A stretch of DNA of 64,000 nucleotides from Zootoca vivipara (lineage: Eukaryota): positions 94,798,001-94,862,000 of the forward strand of contig NC_083277.1 in NCBI RefSeq assembly GCF_963506605.1. The letters run 5' to 3'. A program made the position numbers and the translations under genes. The notes under the pieces are model-generated. The model ran no database searches. It was not told where the DNA came from and saw only the letters and a list, made by a program, of their open reading frames with translations. Below are positions 12,434 to 59,265 of this stretch, in pieces. Each line of letters begins with the position of its first letter. Within the stretch, counting starts at the first letter, position 1.

Positions 12434-12507
12434 TCCTGCTCCTGTGTTCCATGCTATAGCAGAGCCACTTGCCTTTATGGCCATTTGAAAGCTATCTTAT
12501 ACATGTA

Positions 12508-12750
12508 CAGTGGTACCTCTACTTATGAATGACTCTACTTACGAATGTTTCTACTTACGAATGGAGCTCCGTCTGCGATCTTGGATGCGGTTTAGATAGG
12601 ATTTTTTCTACTTATGAATTTTTAGATAGGGTTGCTTCTACTTACGATTTTTTTCTCCCAATGCATTCCTATGGGATTCGACTTACAATTTTTTTCGACT
12701 TACGAATGTGCATTCGGAACGCATTAAATTCGTAAGTAGAGGTACCACTG
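12508..12750. mobile_element. Tc1/mariner-pogo type MITE (family T1)
   Basis: TIR CAGTGGTACCTCTACTTA / TAAGTAGAGGTACCACTG with TA on both sides. Confidence 0.88.
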
Positions 12751-14126: not shown

Positions 14127-14264
14127 AGTATAGCTCAGTTGTTAGAGCATGAGGCCCTTAATCTCAGGGTCATGGGTTTGAGACCCACATTGAGCAAAAG
14201 ATTCCTACATTGCAGGGGGTTGGATTAGGTGACCCTTGTGTTCCTTTCCAACTCTATGATTCTA
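14127..14264 (+). mobile_element. tRNA-Lys/CR1-tail SINE
   Basis: Same structure as the 9757 copy; ends CTCTATGATTCTA. Confidence 0.8.
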
Positions 14265-16294: not shown

Positions 16295-17135
16295 TGACAG
16301 GGAGAGGCCAGCAGTCGCAGACTGGCCTGAATGGGCCAGGGGGAGATTCCAGCTGTGTGGCAGGCAGCAAGTGATGTCACAGGGACAGGAATGTTCTGGA
16401 ATGTTCCGAAGCAGCCAATTTTATTTCCACAAAAAGCTGGGTGGTAGATTAACAGGGATCCTGCTGCCTTTAGAGTAGGAAATTCTGTCAAGTGACAGGC
16501 CTCAAGTAGCACGTCATCTGTTGTGTTTGGAAATGCGGTGTGATGTCCCAACACAAGTGTTACAGAATCAAAACACAGACGATGATCAAAAGGTGTCACG
16601 GCACAATCGCACGAAATGTGGGTTAGTAAAGATATGCCAGCCTTGTTACTAAGGTCTCGAAAGTTACCGGGGCCTTTCTTACAACTAAAAAGTAGGCTGG
16701 TGAAGAATAGCAGGCTAGAAGCATAGCTGGCAGGCAAAGTAGAAAAACACTGTCACCAGTCTGCTGTGTTTGTGGAGGCTGCAGAGGCGGCTTCACTTCC
16801 TCCCCATCCCAGCTAATTTCCACACTGACTATGGAGGACATGACTCCCTGTCCTCCAAATATGGAAGCTGAGTCACTTCACAAAGGTGAAACGACACTCT
16901 GTCCCTCCTCGCCTATGTGGAATTCCTGGTCACCAGTGGTGACCAAGGAGGGCTTTATCAGTTGCACCCACCCTGCTTACAGAATTTGCTCCTAATGGAG
17001 GCTCACCTGGGCCCTATATTGATGCATGTTTGCTTGTGTTGTGAACCCCTTCTGAGATCCATGGATGGAGGGCAGTATAGATATTTAATGAAGGTAATAG
17101 TTCTTTATTATTAAGTTTAAATTAAACAATATTGT

Positions 17136-18695: not shown

Positions 18696-23445
<4,750 letters not shown>

Positions 23446-24577: not shown

Positions 24578-30732
<6,155 letters not shown>

Positions 30733-37031: not shown

Positions 37032-40000
37032 TCACTTCTTGGGGCTCTGAGTGCTTTGCGGGGAGCCCTGCACATAAGACATGATGGCGTTTTGAAGAAA
37101 GCTGACTCGCTGGGCTTCCTCATCCCTCATCCTGGAGATCTCTGCCTCACGAACCCGCAGCTTCTCCAGGAGGCTTGAGACTTCGCCCTCTTTGTCCAGT
37201 AGCGCCTCCCGGTGGTTGCTGGACAGAACTGCATAAAGAAGAACAAAGCATCAGCACACCAAGACCTCTGTGGTCCTCAGGATTCTGAAAATGCTCTTGG
37301 GGCTGGGCAAAGCTTTACACAGCAGTGGCAGAAAACCAGAAAGCCCCCATTGCCCGTATGATCTCTGCTGGTGGAGAAATCTGGGTTTCTTCTTTGAATG
37401 TAAACCTCCTAAAATGACAAAATGGACAAACCTCTCTCTTGCTAACTGTGACAAGTCACTCCCCCAGCTCCAAAGATGCTACTGGACAAGAGCTGCAATT
37501 GCACTGCTGTTTGGGGAGTTGGCATCTGGGATAGCTAGGAGGCAGAAATAAGAGAGGGTGCCCCGATCTTCTCAATCCTGTGGGCTGGATGTGACATTGT
37601 CCCCAGCTGGTAGACTGCAAAGGTTCCACCTTTCCACCTCTTGCTCATGTATGAGCCACTTAATCTTCTACTCCTGCCCTGCATCAAATGCTTCCATTTC
37701 TCTTTATGTCAGTTTGAGAGAGGCTGCCACATGGATTCCAGACAGCCCTCTCATTTCCTCCTCCTTTGCTGGGACTCTCCGTGAGCCATCTCTGCCTCCT
37801 CCAGTCCCAAACCTGCCAGCAAGAAGGAAGCAGGATGCAAAAGGTCCCATTTGTCAGACCCAGCTCCAAGGCATCAAAGGATGCAAAACGAAGGGCTACA
37901 AGAGTGCTTGATGGAGTTGGAAACAAATCACCTTGGTCTCACAGGCATGGCATACCACCCTGTTTCTTGCAGCTTCTGAGGAAGCAGAGGCACACCATTC
38001 CCTACCTTTCAGCTGTCGCTCCAGGGCTGCAATCTTCTCCTGCAGCCCTTCCTGTGCTGTCCTCTCGGCCTCAAGGTGCCCTATCTTCTCCTGCAGCCCT
38101 ACTCGCACTTTGTTGATCTCAGTTACCTTCTCCTGTTCCTTGCTGCTCAACTCCTGCCATACGAAATACAGGCGACAAAGCAAGTCAAGAGGGCTGCAGG
38201 CTGAGTATGAACCATTTTAAAAGCTCAGAGGAGCTGCCCATCCCATCCCTTCCCTGTACTTACATCTACCATCTCTTACAGACCCCCAATTCTACACCAA
38301 TTCAATACTCCAGTCAGCAGAAATTGCATGGGTTTGAAAATTTAATCTGGCAGTGAAGGATGCCCTACCCCCACTTTTCCCACTTTATATTATTATTATT
38401 ACTACTACTACTACTTAGGGAATTTATATACCACTCAATCACCATGGCCTCCAAACCACACTCTCCATTCACCTGCTGAAGTTCTTCCACCCGCCTCTTG
38501 AGCCCTTCCACTTGTAGGCTCAGGTGGCCCTCCTTAGACTGGGCCTCAGCCACTGCTTGCTTTTGCTGCAGGCAGTAATTCTGAGCCTCGTCGCGGGACT
38601 GCATCATCAGCCGCAGCTTCTCCTCCAGGTGCTCCTGTCGCTGTTGCTGCAAATTCCAAAATGGGGGTGTGAGAGGAGGGGGTGGGAAATCAACTGCTTG
38701 AAATTTTATACATAACACCGGCATGCACTAATTAGGGCTGTCGTCCAGTTAAGGAAAACCTCCACCCATTATTAGTGCAAATTTTAATCCTTTAGTTATT
38801 TGACTGAAATTGCATACAACTTTTGAAAAAGCCATAGTTGTGAAGCAAAAAGCATAGATTGTGGGCTCATGTTAGCCATGTGTGTGTTTGAGAAAGGGGA
38901 ATTCCTATTTCTAAAACCGTGCTTGCCACCTGCAGTTTTTGGAAGTAGCAATACAATGTGATGTTGAATTCGCTTCCAAGCGTGCAGTTCTGCAACATAA
39001 ATTTTGCTGTTCTGCAGAGGCAAGAAAACATGAAGCTGCCACTGAAAATGCCAACACTCCCCCACCACTCCAAAATGGTTATCCCCTCTCTCTCAAACTG
39101 GTTTCACACCCTGATGCTATGACACAGAGAGTTTCCCGGCCCTGTTTCCACATCACTGGGTGCCACTTGTTTGTTTGGGGAAACACAATGATGTGATACG
39201 ATGTAGGCAGTACAACGCATTATGGATGGAATGAGGACAAGTCAAGTGGTTTGCTGCTGTTGCGGCTTCTGCAACCACCCACCCCCTTTGTTTCTTATAA
39301 CATGTAGCTCCACCCTCAGCACCCAGCTGTGCTCACCTCTTCCAACCTGGCTTGGTTCTTGGCTTTGATGAGCTCTTCCTCAATCTGGCCTCGCTCTACA
39401 AGGGCAGCGGCTTTCACTCGGCTCAATTCCTAATTACAAAAGCAAAAAAGGGCATTAGGTGACAACTTCGGGTTAAGAATCTTGATGTCACTTCAGCTTT
39501 CCTAAGCGATGTCATCCGACAGGATGTATTTGGATGGAAGATCCTAGAGGAGGTCGAAAAACAACGGAGGATAGGGACTGGGTATGTTTTTCACACAAAG
39601 GTTGGCTATGGCAGTAAGCAGCTTATGGCTGGGACTTGGTACCTTGCGGCGGATCTGCTGCCGTTCCACTCACCTCCTCAAGCCCTATGCGGATGGCTTC
39701 CAGCCTCTGGATGCGCTCCTGCAGGGACCGCTCACTTGCCTCCATGTGATGGTTCAGGTGATCTACCTGCATTATGAATGGCACAAAGGAAGGGGGTACA
39801 TAACAGCATCTGAGCACCATCTAGTGCAGGCATCCCCAAACTTTGGCCCTTCAGATGTTTTGGACTACAATTCCCATCATCCCTGACCACTGGTCCTGTT
39901 AGCTAGGGATCTTGGGACTTGTAGGCCAAAACATCTGGAGGGCCGCAGTTTGGGGGTGCCTGATCTAGTGTAACCCCTTCAGCAAATAGAGACCTTCTCA

Positions 40001-43000
40001 TTCTCAGCTCAGAAAGGGATGTTGGACTCCACTCTGTCCCAAACGGTTTTGGAGCAAAGCCTTCCTTTCAATATATATACACAAATGGACTGACCTCCTG
40101 ATAAGAAATGAGGACTGATTCAGACTATGGAGCTTCTGCTTAGAGTCAGTCTAACCCAGCAAGCCACACAGGCTAATTGGGAGATCCCTCAAGGGGAAAT
40201 GTATTTCCCCTGCCCCAGACTCTTGGGAAGTAAGATCTGAAATGTGGGAACCATTGTGAAAGCATCCAGTCCTTTGTATGGAGAAGAGGAAAATGGAGAT
40301 TGCAATTGGGGAATTCCCCCTCCAAAAGGGAACAAAAGGCCTTTCCACCCTCCCCCCACCTCCCCACTGCTTAGGGCAGGCATCCCCAAACTGCGGCCCT
40401 CCAGATGTTTTGGCCTACAACTCCCATGATCCCTAGCTAACAGGACCAGTGGACGGGGAAGATGGGAATTGTAGTCCAAAACATCTGGAGGGCTGAAGTT
40501 TGGGGATGCCTGGCTTAGGGCTTTGCTGTCCCCCTGGGGGCACCCCCTTCCTTTTCTCTTCATTCAGTCATGTGAAATGGGAAAGGGACTGAAACCTCTT
40601 GTAGGAAAAACACTGCAACCCTACATCTTATGCAGCAAGATGCTAACTAAACAAAGGAATTAAATTTTCACCTGAGACAGAGAGTTCACTTGAGTCAGCT
40701 CTGCCTCCTTGAGAAGGGATCTGTGTTTGTCTTCTTATCACGCCACACCCCCCCTTTCCCCAGGGAGCATAGCTGCCAAGTTATCCCTTTTTTTAAGGGA
40801 TTTTCCCTTATGCTGAATAGGCTTCCTCGCGAGAAAGGGGAAAACTTGGCAGCTATGCCAGGGAGGCTGCTGAAGGACTTGGCCGCCCTCAACCTCACCT
40901 CCTTCAGCCGAAGGGACTCTGCATCTTCAAGGATCTGCTTGAACCTCTTCTTCTCCATCTCCAAACGCTCTGAAGATAAGCAGAGAGAACTACAATGAGG
41001 TGCCAGCTGCTTGATCCTTCACCCGTTCACCTCTTCTGGGGAATCCAGACTCCATCTTACACTCAACCGTTCCAGACTCCCCAAATCCGGCTCACCTTCA
41101 GCCTGTACAGCCCTCAGCTTCATTTCTGCAGTTCTGTGGGTCAGGTCCTCCTTCACCTGGAAGAGCTGTTCCTGCTGTGCTTTGCACCTTCTTTCCAGGT
41201 CGTCCACCTAGAAGGAAGCCACTCTCATGATACCCAGGCAAGCCCAGTCTCTGCACCCTGGACTGCTGGGGCAAGGGGAAGAGGCAGGAGCCTGGCGGCA
41301 GGAAAAGAAGAAGATGGGTTGTCAAGAGTTCCTGGTGTGTGTGTGTCAGGTAAGCTACCCATTGCAGGTACTCAAGCCATTCTCTTACCTGATTCTTGAG
41401 CAGGAGATTCTTCTCATGGGCTGCTGAAAGTTCTCGCTGAAGTGTTGCCTCTCGATTAGCAGATGCCTACAAAGGCAGGCAGTGGAAACTATCAGTTCTT
41501 CTTCCCCTACTTTTCTTCTATCCTCCTCACATACCCCCTATGTAGCACTGCTTCCCATACTACCACCACCACATCAGCTCTGGGCACCTTTCCCAACAAA
41601 GTCCTCCATGCTGAGGCATCAGGTAGTGCCACCTGCCACTTGCTCAGCCACGGATGGCCCCAGTCTGCCCAGTCTGCCCAGATCACCCCGGCCTACCATT
41701 TTGTGTTGCTGCAACTCTTTGACCTGGCTCTCAACCAGCCTCGCCTGCTCCTGCTTTGCCATACTCAGCAGCTCTCCCAGGTTGCACACCTTCTGCTCGG
41801 ACAAAGCCAAAGCGGCCTCCGTCATTTGGAGCCTGCAAGGCAGGAAGTGTCACATGAACCGCTCCAGAGCTATGCTCAAGACTGCAGTAGATTAGGGACA
41901 TTCAGCAAAGCAAACGCCCGAGCGCTTGTGGCCAGAATCAGGTGGTGGAGGAGACAAATTGGCCTGCATAATCGCTTTCAACCTGAAGACCTTACCAGCC
42001 ACAAAACCCCATACGTGGAGTGGAGGAGACATTCTCAAGAGGAGTTAACCCGGTATAACAAACTTTCACGGGGTTTTCAGGGATGAGGAATTTGATGCCC
42101 TCCCGATATTTGTTGGACTACAACTCCCATCATCCCTCACCACTAGCCAGGCTGGCTAGGGCCCGACAACATCTGGAAGGCCACATGCTCTCCGTACCTC
42201 CGAGAAATATGTACTTAGATCAACATCAACTCTATGATTTTATGATTCGATGATAAACAGGGCCTGTTCTCGCTTGACTATCGCCTCACCACCCCAGGAT
42301 GAACATCAACCATTGTGTGTGAAGGATCATAATGTGTTTTTGATAGATATTTTTAAAATATAATAAATGTAAATGTAAATACTAACCTAATTGAAATACT
42401 GTATTACTTGTAAGCCACCTTGGAGGAATGTAAATTGTGATAACTAAATAGACAGCATATCCATTTTATTCTACAGGATGCTGGAAAACCATTTCAGCAT
42501 TCATGCGACAAAGGTCAAGTCCAATGTATTTCTCCAGGCATATACTACGACAGAAATCTTCCACCTTTTGAGACTTGGGACCACCTTCTGCCAAGACATG
42601 CATTTGGGGACCCACCTCTTAATTTTTAGCTGCATTTCTGCATAGTGGTAGTGCAGTTGGTGTGACTCGCTCTAGATCAAATTGTGATCCAGTAGGGAGT
42701 CCCAGTAGCGAGCGAGAACAAGATGGTGTATTAGATGGGTCACACCATCCATTTAAAACTCTCTTAGACGATTTTAACAGTCATGGCTTCCCCCTAAGAA
42801 ACCTGGGAACTGGCTAAGGGCGCTGGGAACTGTAGCTCCGCGAGGAGCTGCCTAACAGCTCTCAGCAACCCAAACTACAGTTCCCAGAATTCTTTGGAGG
42901 AAGCCGTGACTATTAAAGTGGTATAAGAGGGCTTTAATTGGATGGTGTGGGTGTAGCTCTTTAGACTGAGATTCCGTTTGAGCCAGATATCTGGTTGGAA

Positions 43001-46000
43001 ATTAAATCCTGATTTATCCGACCGCCTTGCCCAACAGGTTTCCAAAAAGTTGCTGCTCCTTACTTTGCTTGTAGTGAGTTCAACACGGAATGTCGCTCCA
43101 TCAGGGCCTCTTGCAACTGCCCAATTCGTGTCGCTGATACCCTGCAGCATGGAGAAGAGAGGCAATATCCAGGTATGGGACTATCCGTAAAATATATTTT
43201 GTAGCAAGAGCAGGGAAGGGGGCAGCCAAGTTGTGGCAAAAGTACTGGCTAAAATAGGACAAACAGTGACAAGCAGAAGGTAGATTCTTAGAAATCCTTT
43301 AAAAAAACAACAACCCACAGCATACTTTGTAAATAGTTCCTATGGGAGAAGTAATGCTTTACAAGGGTTCAGCACTCTGAATAACCTGCTTTGATATTTT
43401 TGTGAGCTGCTTTTGACTGTATGAGGAAAGGCGGGTACAAACTCCCCCCTGAAGGGCCAGTACTTTTATTTAAGACACACCTAATTGATATGAAAATACA
43501 CAGCACATTGTATAGAGGGGCTTAAAGTGAGAAAAATGCAGGGGCCCCATGGGCGTGTAGCTTGCAAACTGTTATCAAATGCCTGCCTTTCTCTACACGC
43601 CCAGTAAAGGAGGAGGGGAGTACAAGCTGGGTTCACAGGACCAGATAAGGGAGAAGGGTGTATTGCATTTGGAAAACATGTGTTTTTGTAGTTAAGGAAA
43701 TAAGGTGTTGGCCTGTTTTTGACTGTATAAAAGTATTGTAAATCCACAATTCAGTGTGCAGGTTGCGAGCTGATTGCACTGCACCATTTACTTAGCATAT
43801 GCTGAGCAAATAAATCTTGTTGTATCCTGCCTGGCATGTTGCCTCTTTGTGTGGTTCCATTGCTCCTAATACCCGGGTGGGACTTAGGTCCTACATTTCT
43901 GGGGGCTCGTCCGGGATTTGTACAGGACATTTGGACCCACACAAGGGCAGGTCCGACCTCCCCGGTCCGGTTGGGGGCCGCGGAGCCGCTGCTTGATGTT
44001 TCAGCGCGCACCAGGTGCTTGTGGCTGGGAAACTGAAAGCAAGTATCCGCGATCGCTGCCGTGCCGTGGATGAGTGGAGTGACAAGGAATGGAGCCGGCT
44101 GAAGGAAAGAGACTGTCTCAACCCCGCAGGATGGGTGAGTAAGGGACCCCGCAGCAGAGGTAGGGGCAAGAGGCCTGATCAGCCTCGTGGAAGTGGTCTA
44201 GTAGGCACGCAGTAGAGGTAAGACGTGACCGAACCATCCTTCCATAAGGGACGGAGTAAAACGCGTAAAGGTAAACGCGTAAAGGTAAACGCGTAAGGTA
44301 AAAATAAATTTAAATAAATAAATAAATAAAAATAAAGAAATGAATAAAAAAAATGGGAAGGTAAAAGGGAACCAGGTTAGGTTGGGAGGCTGTTTGTGTG
44401 AGGCGCCTATATGCATGGAGTGTGAAAGAGTGGGGGACCGTAGAGGAAACCCAAAACTGAGTGTGGGTCTCTGCCTTGGCAGAGACCGGACTGGGCAGTA
44501 GTGCGTTTCCTGCGTGTGGGCGACCACCCAGGCCACGAAACCCAGGTGCGAGTGTGTGAGTGCAGTGAATAATTGAGGTGAAGGGAAAATGGGGGGAGGC
44601 TCATCAACCCCAGTGTATAAGAGTTTGATGGAACAAGCAAATTCCTTAAAATGAAGGAAAGATATATATATGGTTATATGTTACATGTTGTCTGTTATGT
44701 GTGTTTGTTAAGTATATGTGAGTCTGTTCCTTGTCTCTGTCAAAAGGCCAGACAGAAACCCATAAATAATTAGAGAAAAATCCAGCCTGAGAGTCTGTAT
44801 GTTAGAGATCTCTGTTTTTTCTTGAAGTAAATAAGAGCTGTACTCAAGACTGAAAATGTTCAAGGGATTTGTTTAAATTTGGCCATAATATCCACAGATA
44901 GTTATAATTGCAAGCTTGCTCTAAAATTTTTAGTTTAAAGAAGCCATGTTGGACCTGATCAATCTTAAACATGGCAATGTAAGAATGAGGTGTGCAAAGG
45001 TTTTGTTATTTGAAAAGGGCTCCAAAATAGAGTCTTCCTCTAAGTGGTAGAAAGGAAAGGAAAGAATTCCTGTACGTGTTAAACTGTGTTCTGAGAGGGG
45101 GATTGCCCCCCCTTGCAATTAAAGAGGAAAGAAATTTGGAGCTTATGGGGAATGTTTAGTTGGAATTGAGTTTATGAGAGAGCTAATTTACCGTCATGTT
45201 CTATTCTACTTTGAAATGTGCTTTGAATTTAGCCTAATGTTTTTAATACGGCGTGCCTTCTAGGAAAATATTATTAAAGGTGGAGGCTCCATAGCCAGCA
45301 ATTGTCTACCTGAATCCAGTTTTAGCTTTGGTTCAATTGGGCAGAAGGGCTCCTACAGTTTCTGTGAGAGCAGCCAGGATTTACTAATAAGTAAACTTAC
45401 TCCCAAGTAAGCTTCCTTTCATGGGAAAGCTAAAAGGGAGGGGGGAAAGTATTGCTAGGAACTCCATTTGGTGTGAAAAGTACTCACCCCTTCTCAGTTT
45501 CTGTATGTGCTTATTTAACCCTTAGTTACTCCTATCCTTTGCGTTAGGCATACCATGCAAGTGAGGAAGATTCTTCTCTAGAAAATTCACCCAACCTGGG
45601 TATCTTATGTGTTATAAGCATCCCTTAGACTTTTTAGTTTAAGGAAGTAACTTCTGTCTTGAACTGTTTATCTTAAGGGTTGTTAAAGGCTTCTATATAA
45701 ATATTGGTATTTTTATCTTCCCCTTCTTATTTTCCTAGTACACTTGTGTGCTTGCATGATAGGGCATAGCCTGGGATTCCTTTCCCAGTTTTATGTCTGT
45801 ATTTAAATGTATGTGTCTCTCTGGTAGCACAAATCTTGCTGTGAACCCTGTATTTTAGAGCAGTGGTTCCCAATTAGCTAATTACTGAGGACCCCCTACT
45901 TTTGAAATTTTTGATAACTCTATAGTAGTTACCTCTGCAAAGCAAGTTTTTGAACAAAATGTGGGGTAGCTCCTAATAAGCAATGGATTTTAGGGATACT

Positions 46001-49000
46001 AAAAACAGATTAGGGCTGGGTGATAGCTGGTTTTCAACATCATGGTATATCAGCAGCTTATATCCTGATAAACCATGATGTGTGCCCCCCCCAAATATGG
46101 ACCAGGCGGTGGTAGGGGGTGGGGGAAAGTCTAACAGAGACCTCACCCCTCGCTGGCTCATGCTGGAGGCAAGGTGGGGGTTAAACTTCCCACTTGAGGG
46201 GAATGCAACTGCATACCTCTCAATGGAGAACTGGGACAGAGCTTGCATTTCCCCAGCTGAGCAGCCGCAATCCCACACCTGCTTGCGTGCAGAGGGACTC
46301 GGGAGGCAGCAGTTTCACCCATGATACACCGCTGAGTGAAGCCGTAGTTGCAGTCTGTCCCTCATGCTGGTCCTGGGCAATGTATCAGCCAGGCCTAGTG
46401 GGGTTGAGGGAAGGAGCAGCCACAGAGGTTGGATGAGGGGGGAGGAAGCAGAGTCACTTCCACCGCATGGTTTGAGTGGAAGGGGATGAGGGGGTACCGG
46501 TACTTCAAGCCGCCATCAGCAGGGCAGCGAGCGGTGGCAGCCAGTGAAGATACATGCCCACTGTGGCTGCTGCTGCTTTCTTGCTGATTAAGAAAGGCTG
46601 CTTTGCCTCAGTGAGAAGGGAAGGTAGTGCCATGGTGCCTTGAAGTGAGGATGATCTGTCAGTGTGAGGGGAAGGCAGGGTTTCGCAATCGGCTGCCCTG
46701 TTTTCCCTCAGCCTGAGGAGTGAAACATTGCTATGTATTGGCAGGTCAAAATTTTTTATTGCGATGGATTCTGGCCAATCTATTGAAAAACCACACAGCG
46801 CTATAACAGACCATAAAATTTGTGCTATTACCATGCAAAAATGACAAAAAATTAGTTGGGGGGAGGCAAGGGATGGGGCCGTGTACCACCTGGGTGTACT
46901 CCGTGGACCCCCAGGGGTCCCCGGACCCCTAATTGGGAACCATTGTTTTAGAGGGTCAGATTGGATGACCTTAGGTCCCTTCCAATTCTGTTACTTTATG
47001 GCTAGGTGGAAGGCAACGTGTCTGCAAGCCTACAAATTTCTTGCTGAGTAGGGGAGTTAAATGGTGGATTGTATGTTGTATGTGCAGTGAAGGTGCTAGG
47101 TAGGTAGAAGGAGAAAGAGAGAATGTGTCTGCAAGCAAGGAAAAGTGAGTTTAAATTCTGGTGGTGTAGTATAATGGGCTGAATCTGGTCAAGCATTGGT
47201 TTTCAGAGTTTGGAATGGAATTTAAGAAATGGAGTTTAGAAAGAAGTGGAGTTGGTATATCATGCATTGAGATGAGTATCCAAAGAGTTTTCACCATGTT
47301 GTCAGCAATTTTTGTGAGCTGCAAAGTTTAGGCACACACGAATTCATAATTAGGCTTTGGCATAAGGGAGGCAGAGAATTTAGTCTGCCCATGGCTGTAA
47401 TTATTAAATATATGAATTCTGGTCATTTCACTCGTACATAAGGGAGTGGATGATTTTCTGTTAATAACCAGAAATAGAGCACACAAATAATAATAATCCA
47501 CATTTGTGTAATTTTGGAATAGAAATCTGTACCCCAAAACTTGTAGAAAAAGGAGGCAAAATAAATCCCAAATTCCTTTGCCTGGGGTATATGTCTGTTT
47601 GGTGCAAGAAACAAGAAATAGTGTAGCAAATTATATTAGGACTCCAAACTAGGAAAATGGATATAAACTGGCTTTGGAAATTTTTTGCTAGGTTTCTGTT
47701 TTTTTGTTTGAAATCTAACCCTATTTTTAAAGTCTATTCCTCACCTTTCCCTTCCTTTATTCAAATTATGATTTAGCCAAGAGCATTTTAAATGGTACAA
47801 TAGATTTGCTGAAATATGAACTCTGTACATGCACAGAGGCTATGTCAGCTTGAAGAGAAAGAGAAAGGAGCAAAATGAAGTTTTAATTAAGAGGTTGCCA
47901 AGTTCCAAAATCTAACATGCCAAATTCTTTCCACAGGTATAAATATCAGAGTACTCCTACTATAAGTCTGTCTAATAATAATATTCCCTTTCAAACAGGA
48001 TGAATGAAGGGGAAAAATACAGGATGGGTGATGCCTGGCTTGAGAGCAGTGCATGTAAAAAGGATCTGGGAGTCTTGGTGGACCATAGACTTGACATGGG
48101 TCAACGGTGTGGTGCAGCAGCTAAAAAGGGGGCCGATGCAATTCTGAGCTGCATAAATAGGAGTATAGCATCTAGATCAGGGGAAGTAATGGTGCCACTG
48201 TATTCTGCTCTGGTCAAAACCTCACCTGGGGTGCTATGTCTGGTTCTGGGCACCACAGTTCGGGAGGGATACTGACAAGCTGGAACAGTGTCCAAAAGAG
48301 GGCAACCAAAGTGGTCAAAGGCCTGGAAACGATGCCTTATGAGGAACGGCTTGGGGAGCTGGGTGTGTTTGGCCTGGAGAAGAGAGGGATAAGGGGTGAT
48401 ATGATAACCATGTTCAAATATATAAAGGGCTGTCGTGTGGAGGAGGGAGAAAGGTTGTTTTCTGCTGCTCTGAAGGGGCAGACACGGAGCAGTGGATTGG
48501 ACTGCAGGAAAGAAGATTCTACCTAGACATTGGGAGGAACTTCCTGACAGTGGGAGCTGTTCGGCAGTGGAGTTTGCTGCCGGGGAGTGTGGTGGAGTCT
48601 CATTCTTTGGAGGTCTTTAAGCAGAGGCTTGACGGGCATATGTCAAGAATGCTTTGATGGTGTTTCCTGCTTGGCAGTGGGTTGGACTGGATGACCCTTG
48701 TGGTCTCTTTCAACTCTATGATTCTATGATTCTAGGATACACGAACCTCAAAGAGAATTCAGAACCATATAAGGAACTTGTGTCCTAATTAACAAAAATT
48801 TTGTCCTTGTTTTCTTCCATAGCCAAACTAGGTGAAGTAAATTAAACAGACAGCTTCCCAAGAAGAAATTTCTATAATATTCTCCCTTTTTCTGATTGTT
48901 ATTATTATTTTCTAACTAATTATGTCTTTAGACCCCAACCCCCTGCAGGTCTATTTTCAAAGGATGTTTTACAGGAAATCAAAATGATAAATAACATCTC

Positions 49001-52000
49001 CTCACCAACTAAGCAGCCTGTCAATGCACCACAAGTGGCCACAACAATTTATTCCCATAAAAGACTTGAGGAACTGAGTAATTGTATTATGAAGAACATT
49101 TTATCTCTTTGATCACAATCTAAGAAGGAAAGAACCTAAAAAAAACTATAACATTTCATCAAGGGTTAGAAAGCCCTTGTGCACAAAAGGTTGGAGCTAC
49201 ATGCAAAGTCAGCAAAAATTATCTCAAGTTCACCTGATTGCCTCAAGATATACAAATGATGTAGAATTAATAATTTGTATGTTTTGTGTATTATGTGTTA
49301 TTGTGTAGGAATGCTGAAATGTGTTGAATGGGACTGACAAAAGGAGGGAATTGTTGGGTGTAATAGTTTCTGTGTTTAATATTCTTTGTATAACGTATTA
49401 TTGCTTACACCCCAATGGAGGATTCTCATGCATTTAATTACTTTAATAGATCAGTCCAAGATTTAGATTAGATCAATTTATGACCGCATTTCTTTCTCCC
49501 ACCTGGAACTCTGCAGTGTACCAGCCTTCTCTACACATTTTAGATTGTTTTAATTCATTCTATCAAGGAGAAGCTTCAGGATTCATGAAAGCCCAGATAA
49601 CAGGAAAATTATATATGCTTTGATTTAGCAGGAATGATCCCATACAGGGTTAAATTCACAATTGGACAGCAGCTCTTTGCAGAAAGGTTTGGAAAGTTAA
49701 TGGGGCTAAATGACTTAGTTCTGATTGGACATGTATCCCAGGTGTAATGAACTTTCTTTGGTCCCCTTGGAACAACTGAGCAACTTTCCTATAAGTGCAA
49801 AACCAACGCCAAATAATGCATCCCATAGAAAGGTCAAGGCAAGGACATCTCTCTCACGACATGTTCAAAACCTGTCCAAAACCTATGGCAAGGCGAAAAT
49901 GGTCAAAGGGAAGCCCTTTAAGGGATCCCCCAGGAATTGTTGCTATGGAATGCTGAAGGTCAAGAGACCAGAGTAAGCTAGATTGACACCTGGGAACATG
50001 CACACACAAAAAGGCAAAACAAACAGCATTTTCAGTTGCTGGTGGTCCTTCCTGTTAAATAAGCATAGCCCACTATTGAGAAAAAAAATGTTTTACCCAA
50101 GGTGCCAGAATTCCACAAGTAATATAGTATTGTGATAGCAGTATCCAGAGCATGTGCCCTCTGTGCCAAAAACAATCCAAGGGCAGGGGTGCTGCCCCCA
50201 CTGGGGATCCAGAGTGGAGGGTTCATCCCTATGGAAGAAGTGGTAGTAGATTTCACTACCACCAGCTAGAGGCTTCAGCCATTTTTAAGAGGCTGGCTCC
50301 CCTGGGTTGGAACCACATTATTGGATCCCATAGCCATTTTTTAATGTGTTCTTTGCTTAGTCCCATGTATTTGCTGATTGATCGAACAACCATGCCCCAC
50401 ATAATGGCCCTGTATCGAGGTATCCCTCCAGATGACGAGATTCCTCTCTTGGAGTGAAATCTGTCACAAAAAGAAAGGGGGAAATGAAGGGCCAGTACTT
50501 TTATTTAAGACACACCTAATTGATATGAAAATACACAGCACATTGTATAGAGGGGCTTAAAGTGAGAAAAATGCAGGGGCCCCATGGGCGTGTAGCTTGC
50601 AAACTGTTATCAAATGCCTGCCTTTCTCTACACGCCCAGTAAAGGAGGAGGGGAGTACAAGCTGGGTTCACAGGACCAGATAAGGGAGAAGGGTGTATTG
50701 CATTTGGAAAACATGTGTTTTTGTAGTTAAGGAAATAAGGTGTTGGCCTGTTTTTGACTGTATAAAAGTATTGTAAATCCACAATTCAGTGTGCAGGTTG
50801 CGAGCTGATTGCACTGCACCATTTACTTAGCATATGCTGAGCAAATAAATCTTGTTGTATCCTGCCTGGCATGTTGCCTCTTTGTGTGGTTCCATTGCTC
50901 CTAATACCCGGGTGGGACTTAGGTCCTACACCCCCTTTAAAATAAACAAATAACAGTATTCCGACTGCTAGACCAGAAGACCTATTAGGGTCAGCACAGA
51001 TGTCACGGTTGTACCATACAAAGTGAAGCGAAGTAAAATAGCAATATCCCTAAACTTCCACAGTGGAAGTAACCTCTTTTTGAGATGCTCCCTGTTCCAT
51101 GCTACCATTTCTGTTTGGCATAACACCTGACTTAGCACCTGTAAACAACACTGAGGAACCATGGTCTGGACTCAGCTGAAAAGGGAAAATATCTGCAGCC
51201 CAGAATCCACTCACCTACTGCTGTGGTTCATCACCTCTCGCTGCTTGTCAATGGTGTCCATCATATCCAGGTACTGGAAATCACATATGTATAAAATGAG
51301 TAACCTGAGTTTGAAATTCAAGCAGCAGGCAGGCAGGCAAATGTACTCAGGAGTACTGGGACAGCTGAACTTTTCTACCCTCAGGCCACAGCTTTTCTTC
51401 CTAGTCCTCCAGTTAACATGTCTATAGATTTTTAATCCCACCCTTCTACTCATGAGCTTTGGGAGACGCACAGTGTCCCCCCTGCATTTTAACCACACAA
51501 CAATCCTACACAACAATCAAGGTTAAGTTGAGAGGTAGCGTGGCCTAAACTCATTCAAATAGCTTTATGGTTTGAACCTGAGTTTCCCCAGTCCTAGCCT
51601 CAAGCTCTATTTGCAAGACCGCAAGTCTTTCTTTGCTGTGGGAATGTTATCACTGTAGTCACAAGAACTGAAGGTAAACACCAAGATGCTGAAGAGCAAC
51701 AGGTTAGATCCACAGGCGTCTTGTCAAGTATACAGTGGTACCTCAACTTACGAATTTAATGCGTTCTGAACACGCATTCGTAAGTTGAAAAAATTTGTAA
51801 GTCGAATCCCATAGGAATGCATTGGGAGAAAAAATTCGTAAGTCGAAGCAACCCTATCGAAAAACTCCTATCTAAACCGTATCCAAGATGGCGGACGGAG
51901 CTCCGTTTGTAAGTAGAAACATTCGTAAGTAGAGTTATTCGTAAGTCAAGGTACCACTGTACAGTGGTACCTCGGTTTATGAACACAATTGGTTCCGGAA

Positions 52001-54946
52001 GTCTGTTCATAAACTGAAGCGTTCATAAACTGAAGCGAACTTTCCCATTGAAAGTAATGGAAAGTGGATTAATCCGTTCCAGACGGTCCGCGGAGTAACC
52101 GTTCATAAACTGAAGCGAACTTTTCCATTGAAAGTAATGGAAAGTGGATTAATCCGTTCCAGACAGGTCCACGAAGTACTTAAACTGAAGCGTTCATAAA
52201 CTGAAACATGGGTGTAATTGGTTCTGGAAGTCTGTTCATAAACTGAAGCGTTCATAAACTGAAGCGAACTTTCCCATTAAAAGTAATGGAAAGTGAATTA
52301 ATCCGTTCCAGATGGGTCTGCGGTGTTCATAAACCGAAAATTCATAAACCGAGGTGTTCATAAACCGAGGTGTTCATAAACCGAGGTTCCACTGTATATA
52401 GGAAGAGCAAGGATTCATTCAATCAAATGGATTACTTTCAGGGAGTTTAAGGAATTAAGTTTTCTTAGCTGGACTAGTTCAGATGATATTTCTGGGAGGC
52501 CGAGAGTTACACAGACCTCTGAGCACTGAGAGGTGCTCCTAACCATTTCTCTTGGCTTCAGCAATTCTACCAGGCCACAGGGATCCAGCAAGATGATTTT
52601 ACAGTAACAATCCTCCCTAGACCAGACCAGACAAACTGGTCCAGGCTTTCTTCAATTTCTAGTATGTTCAAAGTAGTTTGCCATCTGAAGCTGTGAGGGT
52701 TCTGTAGATCAGAACAACTTCCTCTGGCGACTTGGGAGGAATCACCAAGTGATGTTAGAAATGCAATGCCCTCAAGATCAAGCACCATTACAAATTAACC
52801 CTTCCACTCCATAGAGAACCTGACTGAATCCATGGATGAAGAAGACAGGACAGCTCCATAACACATACCCCCAAAAAACTATCAAGCAAAGCTAACAAAC
52901 CTGTCTAGAGTTCTTCTCCTTCAAGCTTATCACCTCTTTGCTGAGCACTTGGGTCATGCTCCGACTCTTGCAGAGGATGTTTTGACGTTCTTGGTTGTGT
53001 TCCATGGCTTGATCTGGGCCAGAGGGAGAAAGAGAAAGTGCATAAATGAAACTTTCCACCAAATATTCTGCTCAGGGTGAGCAGCCAGTGATGTGTAGTC
53101 GATAGAACGTTGGACCCAGACCTGGGAGTCTGGGGTTCTAGTCTCCACTCAGTCATGAAACTCAACGGGGTGACCTTGGGCCAGTCACTAACTCTCAACC
53201 TAATCTACCTCACAAGGCTGTTGCCACCTTGAGCTCCTAACAACAACAACAACAACATATTATTATTATTATTTATACCCCGCCCATCTGGCTGGGTTTC
53301 CCCAGCCACTCTGGGCGGCTTCCAACAGAAAAATGAAATAAAATAATCTATTAAACATTAAAAGCCTCCCTAAACAGGGCTGCCTTCAGATGTCTTCTAA
53401 AAATCTGGTAGAAAAGGGGCGGGATATAAATGCAACCAACCAACCAATCATATACCGATGAGGTCAGTTTTGTCCCAGAGTCACAAATGTGAAATCCAAC
53501 AATTGCTGTTCGTATGTTCCCTGTGCATCTGGCATCAAAATGGGGAGTGTGACATATGAAGAGTCTTGCCGGAGTAAACCAAACACTCTGTTTTCAACAG
53601 GGGCCTACCAGTTACCTCCGAGACGCTCATAATATAAACTAAAAAAAAAAACCCAGCAAATGTGCTGCCCTCCCTCCAAGCCCAGGATGTTCTGTCAACT
53701 TCAAATAACTGTGAGCCTGTCTGAAAATCTTCTTTGGTCTCAGGCTGGATGTTGACCTCTTGTCCCTCTTGTACAGGACCGTTGGGTACAGGGCAGGCCG
53801 CCGCAGCAGCTGAACGTAGAACTCTAAGCACGTAAAGGGCTGGCGCAGCTGCTCACCCACAGCCTTCAGGATGTCACTGGGCACATTGTTCCCGGCCAAT
53901 TCCAGTTGTCGTAGTGCCCGGTTGCTATGCAGGCAATTCAGGAGTGCACGGCCCCCCAGGAGCCCAATGTTATTCCAGCGCAGATCTAAGTAAGAAGAAA
54001 AGCACCACACACGACACCACCAGTTAAACACGAGTGTGGCGATTCGCCCTGAGTCAGGACCCAGAGGGTAAGGGGTTAAGCTGGGGACAGTTAGAACCCT
54101 CAGGGGCGGGCTTAGCCAAGGGATAAAAACCCCTCCCGAGTGGCAGTTGCAGTTGGAGTTGGAGTTGAGTGAGTTAGTGAAGTCAGAGTTGGTTGGGGAG
54201 TGAGAGTCAGAGAGCTAGGTGGAGTATTGGGGGGGGGGGAGGAACAGACAGACAGGATAGCAGTTTGTTATAAAACTAGTTGTGTTGTGTTACTTAGAAG
54301 GTATAGGCCGGTATAGGCAACAGTTTTAAGTTCATGTACAATATCATCAATCCAGTAACCGCACACATATGTACCAATAAATAAACTAAACTTGTTGTTT
54401 TTAAATCATATCCTGGTCTGTGTCGTCTGAGAAGGGAAATAGCAAGTATCCAGCTGGCAGTCTGAGGGGAGCTGCAGCCTGGGATACAAAGTGTCATTGG
54501 TGCAGCATCAATTGATCTTGAAAACATCCAGTGGTGCTGTACAGGTCCAGGCAGGACCGTGACAACAAGATCTTGCTTTTCCAAGTTTTCACACACCAGC
54601 AGCTGAAACTAGGCCACTGGGGTGTGTGTGTGTGTGTATTAACTATAACTGCAATTCATCGAGGGTCCAGTGAAAAGGGCTGGGAGGCTAATCTCTAGTG
54701 GCATTCCACTTCATGTCTTTTTTTGTACTAGGGAGATAAATGCTTGCTGAACTGCTGCAAAGTTTAGCAAAGCAACAGATCCATACTTTATTATACGTGT
54801 GTGAAACGAACAGTATAATTCTATGCATAATTAGAGGTGCTTAAGCCCATTAATTACTACGGGTTTACATGTGCACCAAATTCTGCACAGGGCTCCACTT
54901 GGAAATGCTTCTGTAAGGATACTTTGTAGGCTAGGGAGACTTTGCC

Positions 54947-54991
<45 letters not shown>

Positions 54992-57900
54992 AGTTTTGAG
55001 TATTTTGCCATGCATTGCTTCAGGTGCCAGCCAGGCAGCCAATAAAGCTCAATGGCTGAAGGCCTCATGCCAAAAGGTGCATGACAGGCCACTAAGGCCA
55101 TGTCTGCACCTGTACAGTTCTAAGCTTGACTTGCCCTGGTTTGGTTGGTCAAGAGTGGGCAAATTTATATCTTTCTGAACAGAGTATCGAAATCTGCAAA
55201 GTGAGATGCCCAACTGCCTCAGCACCACCTCCAATTCTGCAGATGCTGCTTGGTAGCATTTGGTGGCTGCAGTGCAGGAGTCAAATGATCCCAGGGTGAA
55301 AGCGGGTCACTGTGGAGACAGGGGTCGGACACATCCATGCAATGCCCTGCAGATACCTTCAGAAGTAGGCAGAGTCCAAGGCTCAAGCCAGGAGAGCAGA
55401 CATCGCTTCCCTGAAAAAGGAACTGGGCTGACAAGGAGGGGAAGATGCTTCGCTGCTTAGAGCAGTGGTTCTCAAAGGGTGTGGCACCCCCCTCCCCACT
55501 GATGTAGCTGGGCAGAGAAGATTCAAGGACCATCAAAGAAACATTTAAACATTTCAGTGTGGTATAACATAGTATCAAAATAATATATTTTTATTTCTAG
55601 AATATGGATAGGTATCTTTTTAAAATGAGAGCAAGAGCATCAAGTAATACTAAGGACAACCCTAGCTGTTTTTTCCAATGTATTGCTGATCGATTTGGTG
55701 TAAAAAGAAGCAGAACAGACAATCACGGAAAATGAAGATGCCAAAACACTAAGATAAACCACCGTGACAATCTCCCTGATATGAGATATAGTGTACTAAC
55801 TTATAACTAGTGAGGACTATTTATCAGGTATAATTTATAAGCATTTAAGTTTCTTCATTTGATTTTGGTTTAGGAGTATTATACCTGATAAATATTTTGG
55901 AATAGTCCTCACTAGTTATAAGTTAGTACACAATTGATTTGGTGTGGCATGAGTAGATTTTTATTCTAAGTGTGTGGCCCAGAGAAGTAAGTCTGAGAGA
56001 TTGGTCTTACCAAGTTCCCGAAGACTGGAATTGGCTTTCAGCGCCATGGACAGCTCTCCTGCCCCCTGGTGGTTGATCTGGTTATTGCGCAGATCCAGGT
56101 ACTGGATGTGACCATTGGCGCCAAGGCCCTCGCAGAAAATGGCAAAGCTTTCTTCCCACACACCCACGTTGTTCCATTCCAAAGTGAGACTGGAGTTGGG
56201 AGCGGGGAAGAGTCAAAAACAAAGGCAAAGAGACCACGTTAGGCAAGAGCACAGCTAAGACTGGGCTATACACCAAGCAAGGAGCCTTTAATTTTCCTCC
56301 CACTCAGTACCAATTTTATGAGGTAATATTGTGTGCCAATCAATAATTTTGTAGAGACAAGAAAGAACCCACCCAGTCTTTTCAGTTTCGCTGAGCAACA
56401 ACAGGAGATGCTGCTCTCGGTCAGATTTCGAAGAAATGGATGTGATACGTGCACACAGCGCACCCCCAGAAGGGTCCAAAAGGAGCAGATGTAGCCCGAA
56501 ATCCCTGTGGCTGCTCACCTCCGGATTGTCTTGTTCTGCCTGAGCAGTTTCCCCAGAGCCTCTGCCCCCACAGATCGTAGGTTGTTTCCCTGAAACAAAC
56601 CAAGCCCCAGCAGTTAACAGGATAACATATGAGCATGGCAGGGTCAGACCAAAGGCCCACCTAGTCTGTTATCCTGGTTCTCAGATGCTTGTGGGAAGCC
56701 CTTAAGCAAGCCAGGAACACAATGGCCCTCTCCCACTCATGGTCCCCAGTAAATGGGATTCAGCTGCTTGTTTTGCCTCGTTGTCAGGTACAAGAACATC
56801 AACACTACAAATGACACTGCTTTAAAATAACTTTTTGTACCATGGCTTCACCCAAGGACACTTGGGAGTTAGAAACTTGTAAAGATGTTGTGACTAGCTC
56901 TTGTGAATGTGAACTACACATTCAGTGTAGTTCACATTCAGTGTTATATTTTCATTATCAACTATTATTTTTATGATTCTGCTGTTGTACATCACTTTGT
57001 GTTATTTGAACTAAAAAGCAGGGTGAAATTTATTAAGTACATAAATAGAATCCAAGATTCCTTAGGGGAGAAAGCCATGGCGTTTAAACTTCAAAAAATC
57101 TGTACTAGCAACATAGGCACACACTACCTACATTTGAGGTCTGGGCTAATCATACGCTGCAACTTAAGCAAAATATTTGTCTCTCTTAGCTTGTGGTGGG
57201 GGGTAATGAGGAGCTAGTTATTTCTTATTGGAGCTTTGTTCCACATGTGTTTAGGACTGGGATGCAAAACCATATGCACAGAACCTGTAAGAGCTTAAAG
57301 CAACTAACTGGGACTTCTGATTCTGAATTCCTGCCTTTACGTTTAAAATTGTACCTCTGCAACCATGAAGATGAGGAATTTAGCCTTTAAAAATAGCTGG
57401 GATTCTCATTGCAGTCTTTTCTGGACCCCACTACTTGGAAGTGGAACCGACTCACCTTCAGATCCAAGGATTTCACAACAGTGTTGGAACAAAGTCCATG
57501 AAGTAGTAGCTTAGCCCCTGTAAGGGAAAAAGGAAAGAGCAGTTACAGTAATTTCTTTTTGTACTGCAGGTCTGGCCTCTCAACCCCTGGGTATGAGCAG
57601 CAAGAGTCAGCAGATATTCATTTCAGTCAGGCAAGCTCTGTTGTTAGCAATTTCTTGCTATGATTCTAACACAGGAGTACCCAAACAGATGCACTCTATA
57701 TGCTGTGGTCAATTTCCATCAGCCTCAGCCAGCATGGCCAACGGTCAAGGATGATGGATGAGTTGTAATCCAAAATATCTAGAACACACTATGTTGGCTA
57801 TCCCTGCTCTAATGGGTGCCAAAAGGTCTTCCTCTGGAATTATGTGTTACCTATAACTCTAGCCTGGGAAAGCTGTTTCAAAGGGGAGCCATAACTCATT

Positions 57901-59265
57901 TATAGTACCATCTTATGCAGGCATCCCCAAACTTCGGCCCTCCAGATGTTTTGGACTACAATTCCCATCTTCCTTGACCACTGGTCTTGTTGTAGGCCAG
58001 AGTTGTAGGCCAAAACATCTGGAGGGCCGCGGTTTGGGGGTGCCTGATCTTATGCATGTTGTGAGCTATCAGGCCCAATCCAAGGCTTTGCTACTGGCTC
58101 TGGGCTCAAGTTCTCAATAGAATGCCTTTCCCGGTTTCAATCAACCCACACTTGGAGGTCTGCAGTGGGGAGGAGGTATGTTCTGGGGAGGGAGCCCTGA
58201 GGGGCAGTCTTCCTCAAGCTTTGGACTACGACTCTCATCAGTGCCAGCCCACATGACCAGTGATCAGGGAGTGCAACAAGTGCATCTAGAGGGCAACAAG
58301 CTTTCCACCCATGTTTTAGGGTTAGAAATAAGCCTGTATTCTCAGGATGCTGTATTCTGGCCCCACTGCCAATTATTGCATACAGTAGTGCAATCACAGA
58401 AATTGCAGTGCATGCCTAGCCCTGTGTAAGAGGCTCTGTTAACAACATGTTCTTTGGGAAGTGGGAAAATTCTGTTTCAGTGTAATATTTTCTGGGGCTT
58501 AGTCTGTTAAATGCAGTCTTCATATTATGGGAAAATGCCCTAGCCTGGGTGGCTGGTAATTAGCAGGCAATTTGGGGGTGGTGTGGTGTTAACCCTTTCC
58601 TTCCCTACTGTGGCACTGAGGAAAATCTATTTTCTGCAAAAAATCAATTTTACATCACTTCACACATCATTGTTTGGCTCTTGATGGGATTTCAAATGCA
58701 CCCCCTCATAGAGGCATCATGGTTCTGAATAGAGACCAAATCCCCTTACGGAAATTGCCACCAGCAAGTATTCCAAGCCCTTTTTTTCCTGGGCCTTCCA
58801 TGGCAACTTGCAATCTTTTGTTTTATTCCTTCCCAAGTGATACATGGAAACCCCTTTTACGAGGAGCAGAAATTCCCACTTGCGCAACTGCAATGAAAGC
58901 ATATGGGTGACAGAGCCGCATCAGCAACTAAAGGACGGGTGAGAGGCCATGAGGAAAAGAGGCCACAGACTATGGCTTTTACTGTCTATTCTCAGGAAAG
59001 GACAGAAATCAAGAATTGCCTTATGAACAAACAGAGCCCCACCTTCTTCACTCAGCATACAATTGCTCAGCGTGATCTCGGTGAACTGGAGTTCATCCTG
59101 CAAGAGCTTGCCCAGGACCCCGCAGGTTTCCACAGAAAGGGTGTGTGTAGCTAAATCCAAGCGGCTTTTCCCTGAGGCTTCCTCCAAGTGCTGCAGGATA
59201 CTTTCCTGGGGTTCAGCACCGCTCTCCTTGCACAGCCTAAGGTAGGACCGTCGGAAGTCATCCAT
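37032..59265 (-). CDS. LRRC45: Leucine-rich repeat-containing protein 45 (centrosome linker), 17 coding exons, 671 aa
   Basis: Exons 59265-59043, 57517-57456, 56589-56519, 56189-56011, 53985-53857, 53013-52901, 51273-51215, 43141-43064, 41832-41697, 41466-41389, 41207-41096, 40969-40899, 39766-39674, 39429-39337, 38646-38473, 38153-38006, 37228-37032 (2016 nt, GT-AG, in frame). [21 protein letters not shown] start, LRRs ([32 protein letters not shown]), then a long coiled coil. Confidence 0.95.
39827..39962. mobile_element. hAT MITE family A
   Basis: Perfect 8-bp TSD ATCTAGTG. Confidence 0.92.
40377..40512. mobile_element. hAT MITE family A (opposite orientation)
   Basis: Perfect 8-bp TSD GCTTAGGG. 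Confidence 0.92.
40768..40857. mobile_element. hAT MITE family B
   Basis: TIR CATAGCTGCCAAG/CTTGGCAGCTATG; perfect 8-bp TSD CCAGGGAG. Confidence 0.9.
43450..43895 (+). repeat. 5' LTR
   Basis: TGAAGGG...CCTACA; TATAAAA at 43726; AATAAA at 43809; identical by eye to 50485-50930. Confidence 0.95.
43900..43917 (+). promoter_or_regulatory. Primer binding site for tRNA-Pro
   Basis: TGGGGGCTCGTCCGGGAT, the 18-nt MLV-type Pro PBS, 4 nt after the LTR. Confidence 0.92.
45861..46945. mobile_element. 1.1-kb non-autonomous hAT (Charlie-like) element nested in the LTR element
   Basis: 17-bp TIR CAGTGGTTCCCAATTAG / CTAATTGGGAACCATTG (1 mismatch); perfect 8-bp TSD TTTTAGAG. Confidence 0.9.
48005..48734 (+). 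mobile_element. 5'-truncated CR1 LINE nested in the LTR element, A->G hypermutated
   Basis: [27 protein letters not shown]...YEERL.ELG.F.LEKR..RGDMI CR1 ORF2 remnants; ends in ATTCTATG repeats. Confidence 0.92.
50123..50457 (+). pseudogene. Retroviral integrase N-terminal remnant joined to an env TM/cytoplasmic-tail-like remnant
   Basis: 50123-50269 reads [48 protein letters not shown] (CxxC of HHCC plus the first catalytic DFT). Then [18 protein letters not shown] / LMCSLLSP...IMALYRGI...* ends just before the PPT. Confidence 0.7.
50485..50930 (+). repeat. 3' LTR
   Basis: Direct repeat of 43450-43895, preceded by the PPT; the ORF track gives identical 88-aa translations for both. Confidence 0.95.
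51733..51959. mobile_element. Tc1/mariner-pogo MITE family T1
   Basis: Reverse-orientation relative of 12508-12750; TA flanks. Confidence 0.88.
51962..52394. mobile_element. Tc1/mariner-pogo MITE family T2
   Basis: Relative of 21120-21440 with an extra internal unit; shares the TA at 51960-51961 with the T1 copy. Confidence 0.88.
53250..53410 (-). mobile_element. L2 3' terminal fragment, next to an older MIR/CORE-like SINE remnant (~53085-53240)
   Basis: Reverse complement of the L2 3' ends at 3100-3253 and 23150-23241. Confidence 0.65.
54035..54564 (+). mobile_element. Probable solo LTR (Gypsy-like), ~530 bp
   Basis: TGTGGCG...CGTGACA termini; 5-bp TSD ACGAG/ACAAG; GC box; TATA-like GATAAAA at ~54122; AATAAA at ~54376. 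Confidence 0.65.
54949..54990. repeat. (TG)n microsatellite
   Basis: About 21 TG units. Confidence 0.95.
55791..55931. repeat. AT-rich inverted repeat in LRRC45 intron 4
   Basis: 31-bp perfect arm 55791-55821 / 55901-55931, plus inner arm TATCAGGTATAAT / ATTATACCTGATA. Confidence 0.88.
57918..58046. mobile_element. hAT MITE family A
   Basis: Perfect 8-bp TSD ATCTTATG. Confidence 0.92.

Follow-up and report, generated by a model that had tools for sequence, protein, structure and literature searches.

The stretch analysed here (64,000 nucleotides of contig NC_083277.1, referred to as the window) carries at positions 43450–50930 a 7481-bp element with the structure of a provirus, inserted antisense into the gene LRRC45. 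When an exon of this gene was used to query proteins, the best correspondence was to LRRC45 of Podarcis muralis (99%), followed by other squamates (76–88%), and the host appears from its sequence to be a Podarcis-like lacertid. Mapping the P. muralis protein on the window placed 17 coding stretches on the minus strand (untranslated exons are outside this count), with the element on the opposite strand between coding stretches 7 and 8. It thus lies in coding intron 7, where a previous reading of the sequence alone had put it, and this intron measures about 0.6 kb without the element and 8070 bp with it. The coding stretches of LRRC45 appear intact. The element places five AATAAA hexamers on the LRRC45 strand (minus; 43470, 46760, 47761, 49053 and 50505), which could truncate the host transcript.

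Paired direct long terminal repeats (LTRs) with promoter and polyadenylation signal, a tRNA primer binding site (PBS) and a polypurine tract identify the element as an LTR retroelement or provirus (Table 1). The LTRs, which the sequence-only reading had judged identical by eye, agree at 446 of 446 positions in an exact comparison, and the match breaks off exactly at each edge. They have TG...CA termini and contain TATAAAA at 43726 and AATAAA at 43809; when the neighbouring internal bases are counted in, the att ends form a 9/10 inverted repeat. The other signals reported as intact could likewise each be located: the 18 letters of the PBS are all contained in a PBS-Pro probe for murine leukaemia virus (MLV) given in PMC4587795, the polypurine tract is a 17-nt purine run directly 5' of the 3' LTR, and the leader has a splice donor GT at 44135. 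C runs flank the insertion (C6 on the left, C5 on the right), so that the target-site duplication is of low complexity and may be 4 or 5 bp long. PBS-Pro and leader donor are, together with a duplication of this ambiguous length, typical though not exclusive marks of class I (gamma/epsilon-like) endogenous retroviruses (ERVs), to which the element would, on our best reading, be assigned; it has no recognisable reverse transcriptase (RT) and only a 46-residue integrase-like remnant with unnamed matches.

The leader and the remaining interior differ sharply in their CpG content. The ratio of CpG to GpC is 37/43 in the leader (0.86, as against 0.26–0.34 in the flanks; P = 9e-6) and 14/133 in the non-cargo interior, which is below both the leader (P = 8e-10) and the 14 kb of flanking sequence (223/763; P = 1e-4). 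Within 43896–45860 the CpG content changes most sharply at 44550, some 40 nt 5' of a possible gag start: 37 CpGs lie ahead of this point and five behind it. In 44259–44354, three 14-bp units containing a self-complementary CpG hexamer are followed by an A-rich tract in which AATAAA occurs five times; the units are candidate dimerisation loops, and the tract, which lies downstream of the splice donor, is a possible premature polyadenylation region.

Intact gag, pol and env are missing, as in a non-autonomous element: the three plus-strand frames of the interior contain 107, 121 and 130 stops, and the longest open stretch (116 codons) belongs to an inserted CR1 element. Pfam searches with 15 of 15 frames (X at stops) and 13 short stretches returned no family below E 0.05, PDB sequence searches with five readings, all taken from the 3' interior, gave only chance matches (E 0.42 or worse), and neither Rfam nor ARAGORN found a match within the element. 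A simple pattern applied to the element strand detected no splice acceptor that was strong. The earlier description of the element as non-coding is correct for open reading frames (ORFs) but not for retroviral traces, since the interior keeps an integrase-like remnant. When 49301–50482 (X at stops) was compared with 1.84 billion representative proteins, there were four matches with E values of 0.001 or lower; three, all unnamed, had E 1–2e-7 and 57–60% identity over 50126–50263. By its motif (CxxC ... DFT) this segment resembles a retroviral integrase zinc finger leading into the start of the core. Directly 3' of it, a hydrophobic stretch resembles an env anchor and tail, and at 44589 there is a gag-like start whose MG..S is presumably a myristoylation-type motif; both resemblances are by eye and have no database match. 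The interior is probably best read as a heavily deleted provirus with candidate gene remnants.

Foreign sequences are nested within this interior. The 1085-bp hAT-like insert has terminal repeats matching at 16 of 17 positions and a perfect 8-bp target duplication (45853–45860 and 46946–46953), the length that is the rule for hAT elements; it has no Pfam match. Its terminal motif occurs six times in the window (0.58 expected), which holds no sibling of the hAT body, so that the age and decay of the insert have no yardstick. All six CR1-type 3' ends of the window can be aligned with the 54 bp on the right of the insert (P = 0.002 each, 500 shuffles), so that the hAT must have inserted into an older CR1 stub or next to it; to the left of the hAT, 45813–45860 gives a weak match to one of the six ends (P = 0.034). 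This stub is a layer beyond those listed by the sequence-only reading. A G-over-C skew in the hAT (318 vs 239, P = 9e-4) was considered as a sign of editing and dropped, as A is not depleted and there is no sibling for comparison.

A second, larger CR1 lies further downstream on the provirus strand. It has the C-terminal ORF2 homology, 5' truncation and microsatellite 3' tail of a CR1 long interspersed element (LINE), and no duplication of 6 bp or more was found around it. In four in-frame stretches it is 73–77% identical at the amino-acid level to 14 Podarcis RT proteins; these relatives are labelled as RT-domain proteins, and the clade name CR1 is given on the strength of the tail. One predicted P. 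muralis protein joins a gypsy-type RT, RNase H and integrase to a CR1 ORF2 end, and only its CR1 part matches the element; this suggests that the P. muralis genome contains another LTR element with a nested CR1.

The changes in the large CR1 are strongly biased towards A>G on one strand. They were tallied over the four stretches at the 210 codons for which the covering Podarcis proteins show agreement of 80% or more; four codons (three variable, one poorly covered) were dropped, and 12 ambiguous changes, nine of which could be A>G, were set aside. At 50 of the 210 codons the CR1 departs from the Podarcis majority, while in a control, comparison of the 14 Podarcis proteins with the majority among themselves gave 24 departures in 2609 positions, two of them of A>G type. 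Per nonsynonymous opportunity, the unambiguous changes were 30/149 for A>G, 10/117 for G>A, 3/64 for C>T and 0/87 for T>C, with three transversions in about 1065 opportunities. A>G is thus more frequent than T>C, its counterpart on the other strand (P = 6e-7). Changed A residues are, moreover, seldom preceded by G (4 of 30, compared with 46 of 128; P = 0.017), a neighbour preference that forms part of the ADAR signature as described in PMC2873906. On both counts the suggestion that the LINE had been edited holds. An APOBEC-type excess of G>A over C>T was also tried and rejected as not significant (P = 0.39).

RNA editing followed by reverse transcription would best explain this bias, with ADAR as the presumed enzyme. 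CR1 3' fragments are given as major ADAR targets in chicken RNA (PMC5625713), and in the LTR elements of vertebrates surveyed in PMC4866542, clusters other than G>A and C>T are described as very rare. The element contains no inverted CR1 copy that could act as the double-stranded partner, and the partner strand would need a trans source, read-through or an earlier transcript. Since the CR1 runs in the same direction as the provirus and has no inverted counterpart within it, three candidates for the edited molecule cannot be told apart: the CR1's own transcript, a host RNA acquired through template switching, and the proviral RNA, whose pairing would have occurred in trans or through read-through. 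The codon 48241–48243 requires A>G and C>T together, which would fit an edit that made a CpG and a later decay of this CpG; it hints, as a single site, that editing came before a period in the genome.

Table 1. Parts of the provirus-like element and the two LRRC45 coding exons next to it (positions in the window)
Feature	Position	Strand	Basis
LRRC45 coding exon 8	43063-43143	-	protein mapping
Left target-site duplication (C run; 4 or 5 bp)	43446-43449	.	flank comparison
5' LTR, 446 bp	43450-43895	+	LTR identity; terminal inverted repeat 9/10
PBS, tRNA-Pro	43900-43917	+	18 letters as in MLV PBS-Pro probe, PMC4587795
CpG-rich leader	43896-44588	+	donor 44135, CpG/GpC 37/43
Leader tandem repeat, 14 bp x 3.2	44259-44302	+	repeat scan
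Leader A-rich tract	44302-44354	+	sequence
Leader imperfect inverted repeat	44444-44511	+	sequence
Possible gag start remnant, 21 codons, MG..S	44589-44651	+	by-eye resemblance only
CpG-poor decayed interior 1	44589-45852	+	CpG/GpC 5/44
Non-autonomous hAT-like DNA transposon, 1085 bp	45861-46945	.	terminal repeats, 8-bp duplication
Older decayed CR1-type 3' stub (weak possible 5' part 45813-45860)	46950-47003	+	shuffle-tested alignments
5'-truncated CR1 LINE, three frame changes, A>G hypermutation, CR1 microsatellite tail	47997-48734	+	protein alignments
A-rich, CpG-poor decayed interior, probably pol-derived (from its position)	48735-50125	+	composition; no Pfam/PDB match
Integrase zinc-finger-like remnant	50126-50263	+	3 unnamed proteins, E 1-2e-7
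Possible env transmembrane/tail remnant	50270-50457	+	by-eye resemblance only
Polypurine tract	50468-50484	+	purine run
3' LTR, same as 5' LTR	50485-50930	+	LTR identity
Right target-site duplication (C run)	50931-50934	.	flank comparison
LRRC45 coding exon 7, upstream of the insertion on the host strand	51214-51276	-	protein mapping

The ends of the element are much younger than its interior. With no difference in 446 bp, LTR divergence has an upper 95% limit of 0.67%, corresponding to about 1.7 million years (Myr) at the rate of 1.98e-9 per site per year in PMC8760935; the element can be called very young in the sense of this bound, which is no proof of present activity. A stop-ridden backbone, a loss of CpGs to below the genomic level and a decayed CR1 stub cannot arise within 0.33% divergence, so that the decay is older than the last equalisation of the LTRs, and the claim that decay and nesting pre-date the LTR pair is borne out. 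This is stronger evidence of age than the divergence of the large CR1, where the six to nine changes outside purine transitions amount to some 2–3%, a figure that is weakened by reference proteins possibly coming from other species; six such changes, to which three frame changes must be added, compare with 0.9 expected after insertion (P = 4e-4, under assumed transition and transversion weights). Equalisation of the LTRs is due either to reverse transcription or to gene conversion, and recent replication is favoured because a perfect PBS and a CpG-rich, single-copy leader are beyond repair by conversion between LTRs.

Of the possible explanations, we favour as the probable one that a defective class I ERV lineage acquired its cargo while at previous loci, and that a recent copying event in trans brought it to the present one. 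Ancestors at other genomic sites would have lost their genes and CpGs over a long time, and would have received a CR1 stub, then the hAT on top of it, as well as the second CR1. With LTR promoter, leader, PBS-Pro and polypurine tract retained, the transcript of the whole composite could be packaged, and proteins of a related intact ERV, acting as helper in trans, would then have reverse-transcribed and integrated it. Reverse transcription would have reset both LTRs to identity, and the copy would have landed antisense in intron 7 of LRRC45 no more than roughly 1.7 Myr ago. The large CR1 would, at one stage or another, have passed through double-stranded RNA, where hyper-editing by ADAR may have taken place, to be fixed in DNA as A>G by reverse transcription.

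Several observations weigh against this explanation. Only one copy is visible: no part of the proviral backbone recurs in the window, and neither a helper nor a shared junction was seen. The LTRs themselves are CpG-poor (CpG/GpC only 4/26) and so are no obvious fresh import, the leader folds no better than shuffled sequences (z -0.13; 9 of 20 shuffles as good), and a duplication within C runs is a weak sign of a site made by integrase. The identity of the integrase remnant leans on unnamed matches and a motif; searches for named relatives of the peptide gave none, with zero of seven candidates scored in a word-indexed search (48 residues) and no usable match in the ESM Atlas. For the CR1, the reference set (P. 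muralis and P. raffonei, ORF-bearing) is biased towards young copies, and the host may be another lacertid, which would inflate the apparent decay. Where bird data exist for A>G-type sites (29), 14 side with Podarcis, four with the window and 11 with neither, and a DNA comparison with six distant CR1 pieces of the window (28 G/A vs 14 A/G, P = 0.044) is driven by one piece.

A possible though less likely alternative is a recombinant of the recKoRV or Harlequin type, in which LTRs, leader and 3' tail stem from a young, invading retrovirus and the middle from an old retroelement. It would have formed by template switching in a particle that packaged both, and the copy may then be a one-off event rather than the product of a long non-autonomous lineage. 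The sharp CpG change point shortly before the possible gag start fits such a junction, but CpG-rich leaders are common among retroviruses in any case; moreover, the LTRs are CpG-poor and no parent is visible. The layout is like that of recKoRV1 as given in PMC6112702, where an LTR and gag leader are followed by a PhER middle and by an env end and LTR. Recombination is largely compatible with the lineage that we favour, and differs from it in the origin of the ends.

More doubtful is a bolder version of copying in trans, according to which a currently amplifying lacertid family of gene-less proviruses ferries a DNA transposon and LINEs through RNA, with ADAR editing the packaged proviral RNA. 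If proviral RNA was indeed what was edited, the ERV route would write A-to-I edits into the germline genome, an A>G counterpart of DNA editing by APOBEC, and sibling copies would be a dated series of heritable RNA-editing events.

It is unlikely that an old provirus decayed and gathered its inserts in place in intron 7 and had its LTRs equalised later by gene conversion. Such conversion is common, with potential converted regions reported for 25% of plant LTR pairs (PMC7251063), and of 19 human ERVs with 0–1% LTR divergence 10 are absent from chimpanzee and nine are shared (PMC4724089). No helper would be needed, and the LTRs are as low in CpG as the interior. However, a conversion tract would have to span all 446 bp up to both edges, and it could not have repaired the PBS (18/18), the att repeat (9/10) or the leader with its 37 CpGs, although the latter could still have persisted as an unmethylated island.

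We consider it quite unlikely, too, that a young and already deleted provirus received the hAT, the large CR1 or both only after its arrival, the CR1 having been edited on its own RNA before target-primed insertion, so that no cargo was ever moved by the ERV. The intact 8-bp duplication of the hAT and its age without a yardstick would permit this, and most of the change in the CR1 consists of sense-strand purine transitions, which are possible within one retrotransposition and leave only 2–3% strand-symmetric decay; heavy editing of CR1 3' fragments in chicken (PMC5625713) is in keeping with it. However, this decay and the three frame changes are above the 0.33% allowed per copy (P = 4e-4), two independent insertions into 7 kb in less than 1.7 Myr are improbable, and the older CR1 stub is too diverged to have arrived after the insertion. 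Finally, it is very improbable that the LTR identity is an artefact of assembly or polishing, as consensus building can homogenise repeat copies but 446-bp repeats, each with a unique flank and a unique interior, are easily spanned by long reads, and other repeat pairs in the window (60–98% identical) have not been collapsed.

Defective ERVs that have been copied recently are a known phenomenon, of which this is, on our best reading, a well-formed example in a little-studied host. Of the two labels in the sequence-only reading, LARD- and VL30-like, the second (and equally a comparison with recKoRV) is the closer fit, while the first is inappropriate for a deleted provirus remnant. LARDs are derived from plant gypsy and copia elements and have long LTRs and a conserved, structured non-coding interior free of retroviral gene remnants; the present element is similarly a large non-autonomous LTR element without ORFs, but has 446-bp LTRs, an integrase-like remnant and a patchwork of decayed, unstructured sequence. 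Mouse VL30, as described in PMC4859993, is also non-autonomous, with decayed remnants instead of gag, pol and env ORFs, and an intact PBS and polypurine tract; its duplication is of 4 bp, beside the 4 or 5 bp here, and 17 of 86 full-length copies have PBS-Pro and 42 of 86 have identical LTRs. VL30 is, however, a proven mobile family of many copies, while we have one copy and a likeness by analogy, and the nested DNA transposon and edited LINE have no counterpart in that description. HERV-H with its "midwife" helpers and the Harlequin mosaics likewise combine a decayed interior with a discrepantly low LTR divergence, and reintegration after mosaic formation as well as secondary insertions inside proviruses are reported for human ERVs, but those mosaics are composed mostly of retroviral parts and not of hAT and CR1 cargo (PMC4724089). 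In koala recKoRV1/PhER, too, the LTRs and leader are young and enclose an old non-coding retroelement together with a short env end; there both parents are known, here neither is, and the LTRs here are CpG-poor (PMC6112702). With APOBEC-edited ERVs the element shares a strand-biased hypermutation fixed in a genomic retroelement, but the changes described for them are G>A (PMC4866542), while here A>G predominates, in an ADAR-like context and within LINE cargo. This fixed, apparently ADAR-like footprint is the one unusual feature, and it is well supported. In the open-access literature, supplements aside, we found neither this element nor any ERV carrying a LINE hyper-edited by A>G changes; the family may already be catalogued in repeat libraries.

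Other features of the window are as follows. An exon at 6959–7504 (plus strand) resembles by eye a Fringe-family glycosyltransferase, in agreement with the known synteny around LRRC45. An intronless 14-3-3-like ORF (15551–16420, minus strand; about 247 codons from the first ATG, by eye) looks divergent and is possibly a retrogene or of sigma type. Two repeats on the plus strand (9744–9883 and 14114–14264), 80% identical, combine a tRNA-like head (29.2 bits to Rfam tRNA at 9754–9825) with a CR1-type 3' tail and represent a tRNA-derived short interspersed element, probably mobilised by CR1. In LRRC45 intron 6, two adjoining CpG-rich repeats (51727–52390; observed/expected 0.8–1.55) with terminal inverted repeats and 16-bp internal tandem units are 86–98% similar to copies at 12502–12755 and 21114–21445, and look like young DNA transposons. 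A palindromic family resembling miniature inverted-repeat transposable elements has at least five copies, 72–95% identical (3485–3666, 26160–26337, 39790–39968, 40340–40518 and 57881–58050).

ERV biology is thinly described in Podarcis-like lizards. The growth of an LRRC45 intron from 0.6 to 8.1 kb, with five AATAAA gained on the host strand, offers a testable effect on a host transcript. If further copies are confirmed, the element would document that a defective ERV has recently been mobilised in trans in reptiles of the wall-lizard type, and DNA transposons and LINEs would be seen to gain copies as ERV passengers, which would distort repeat-age landscapes. It would then also constitute a fixed genomic record of A-to-I hyper-editing that could be polarised and dated with the help of sibling copies.

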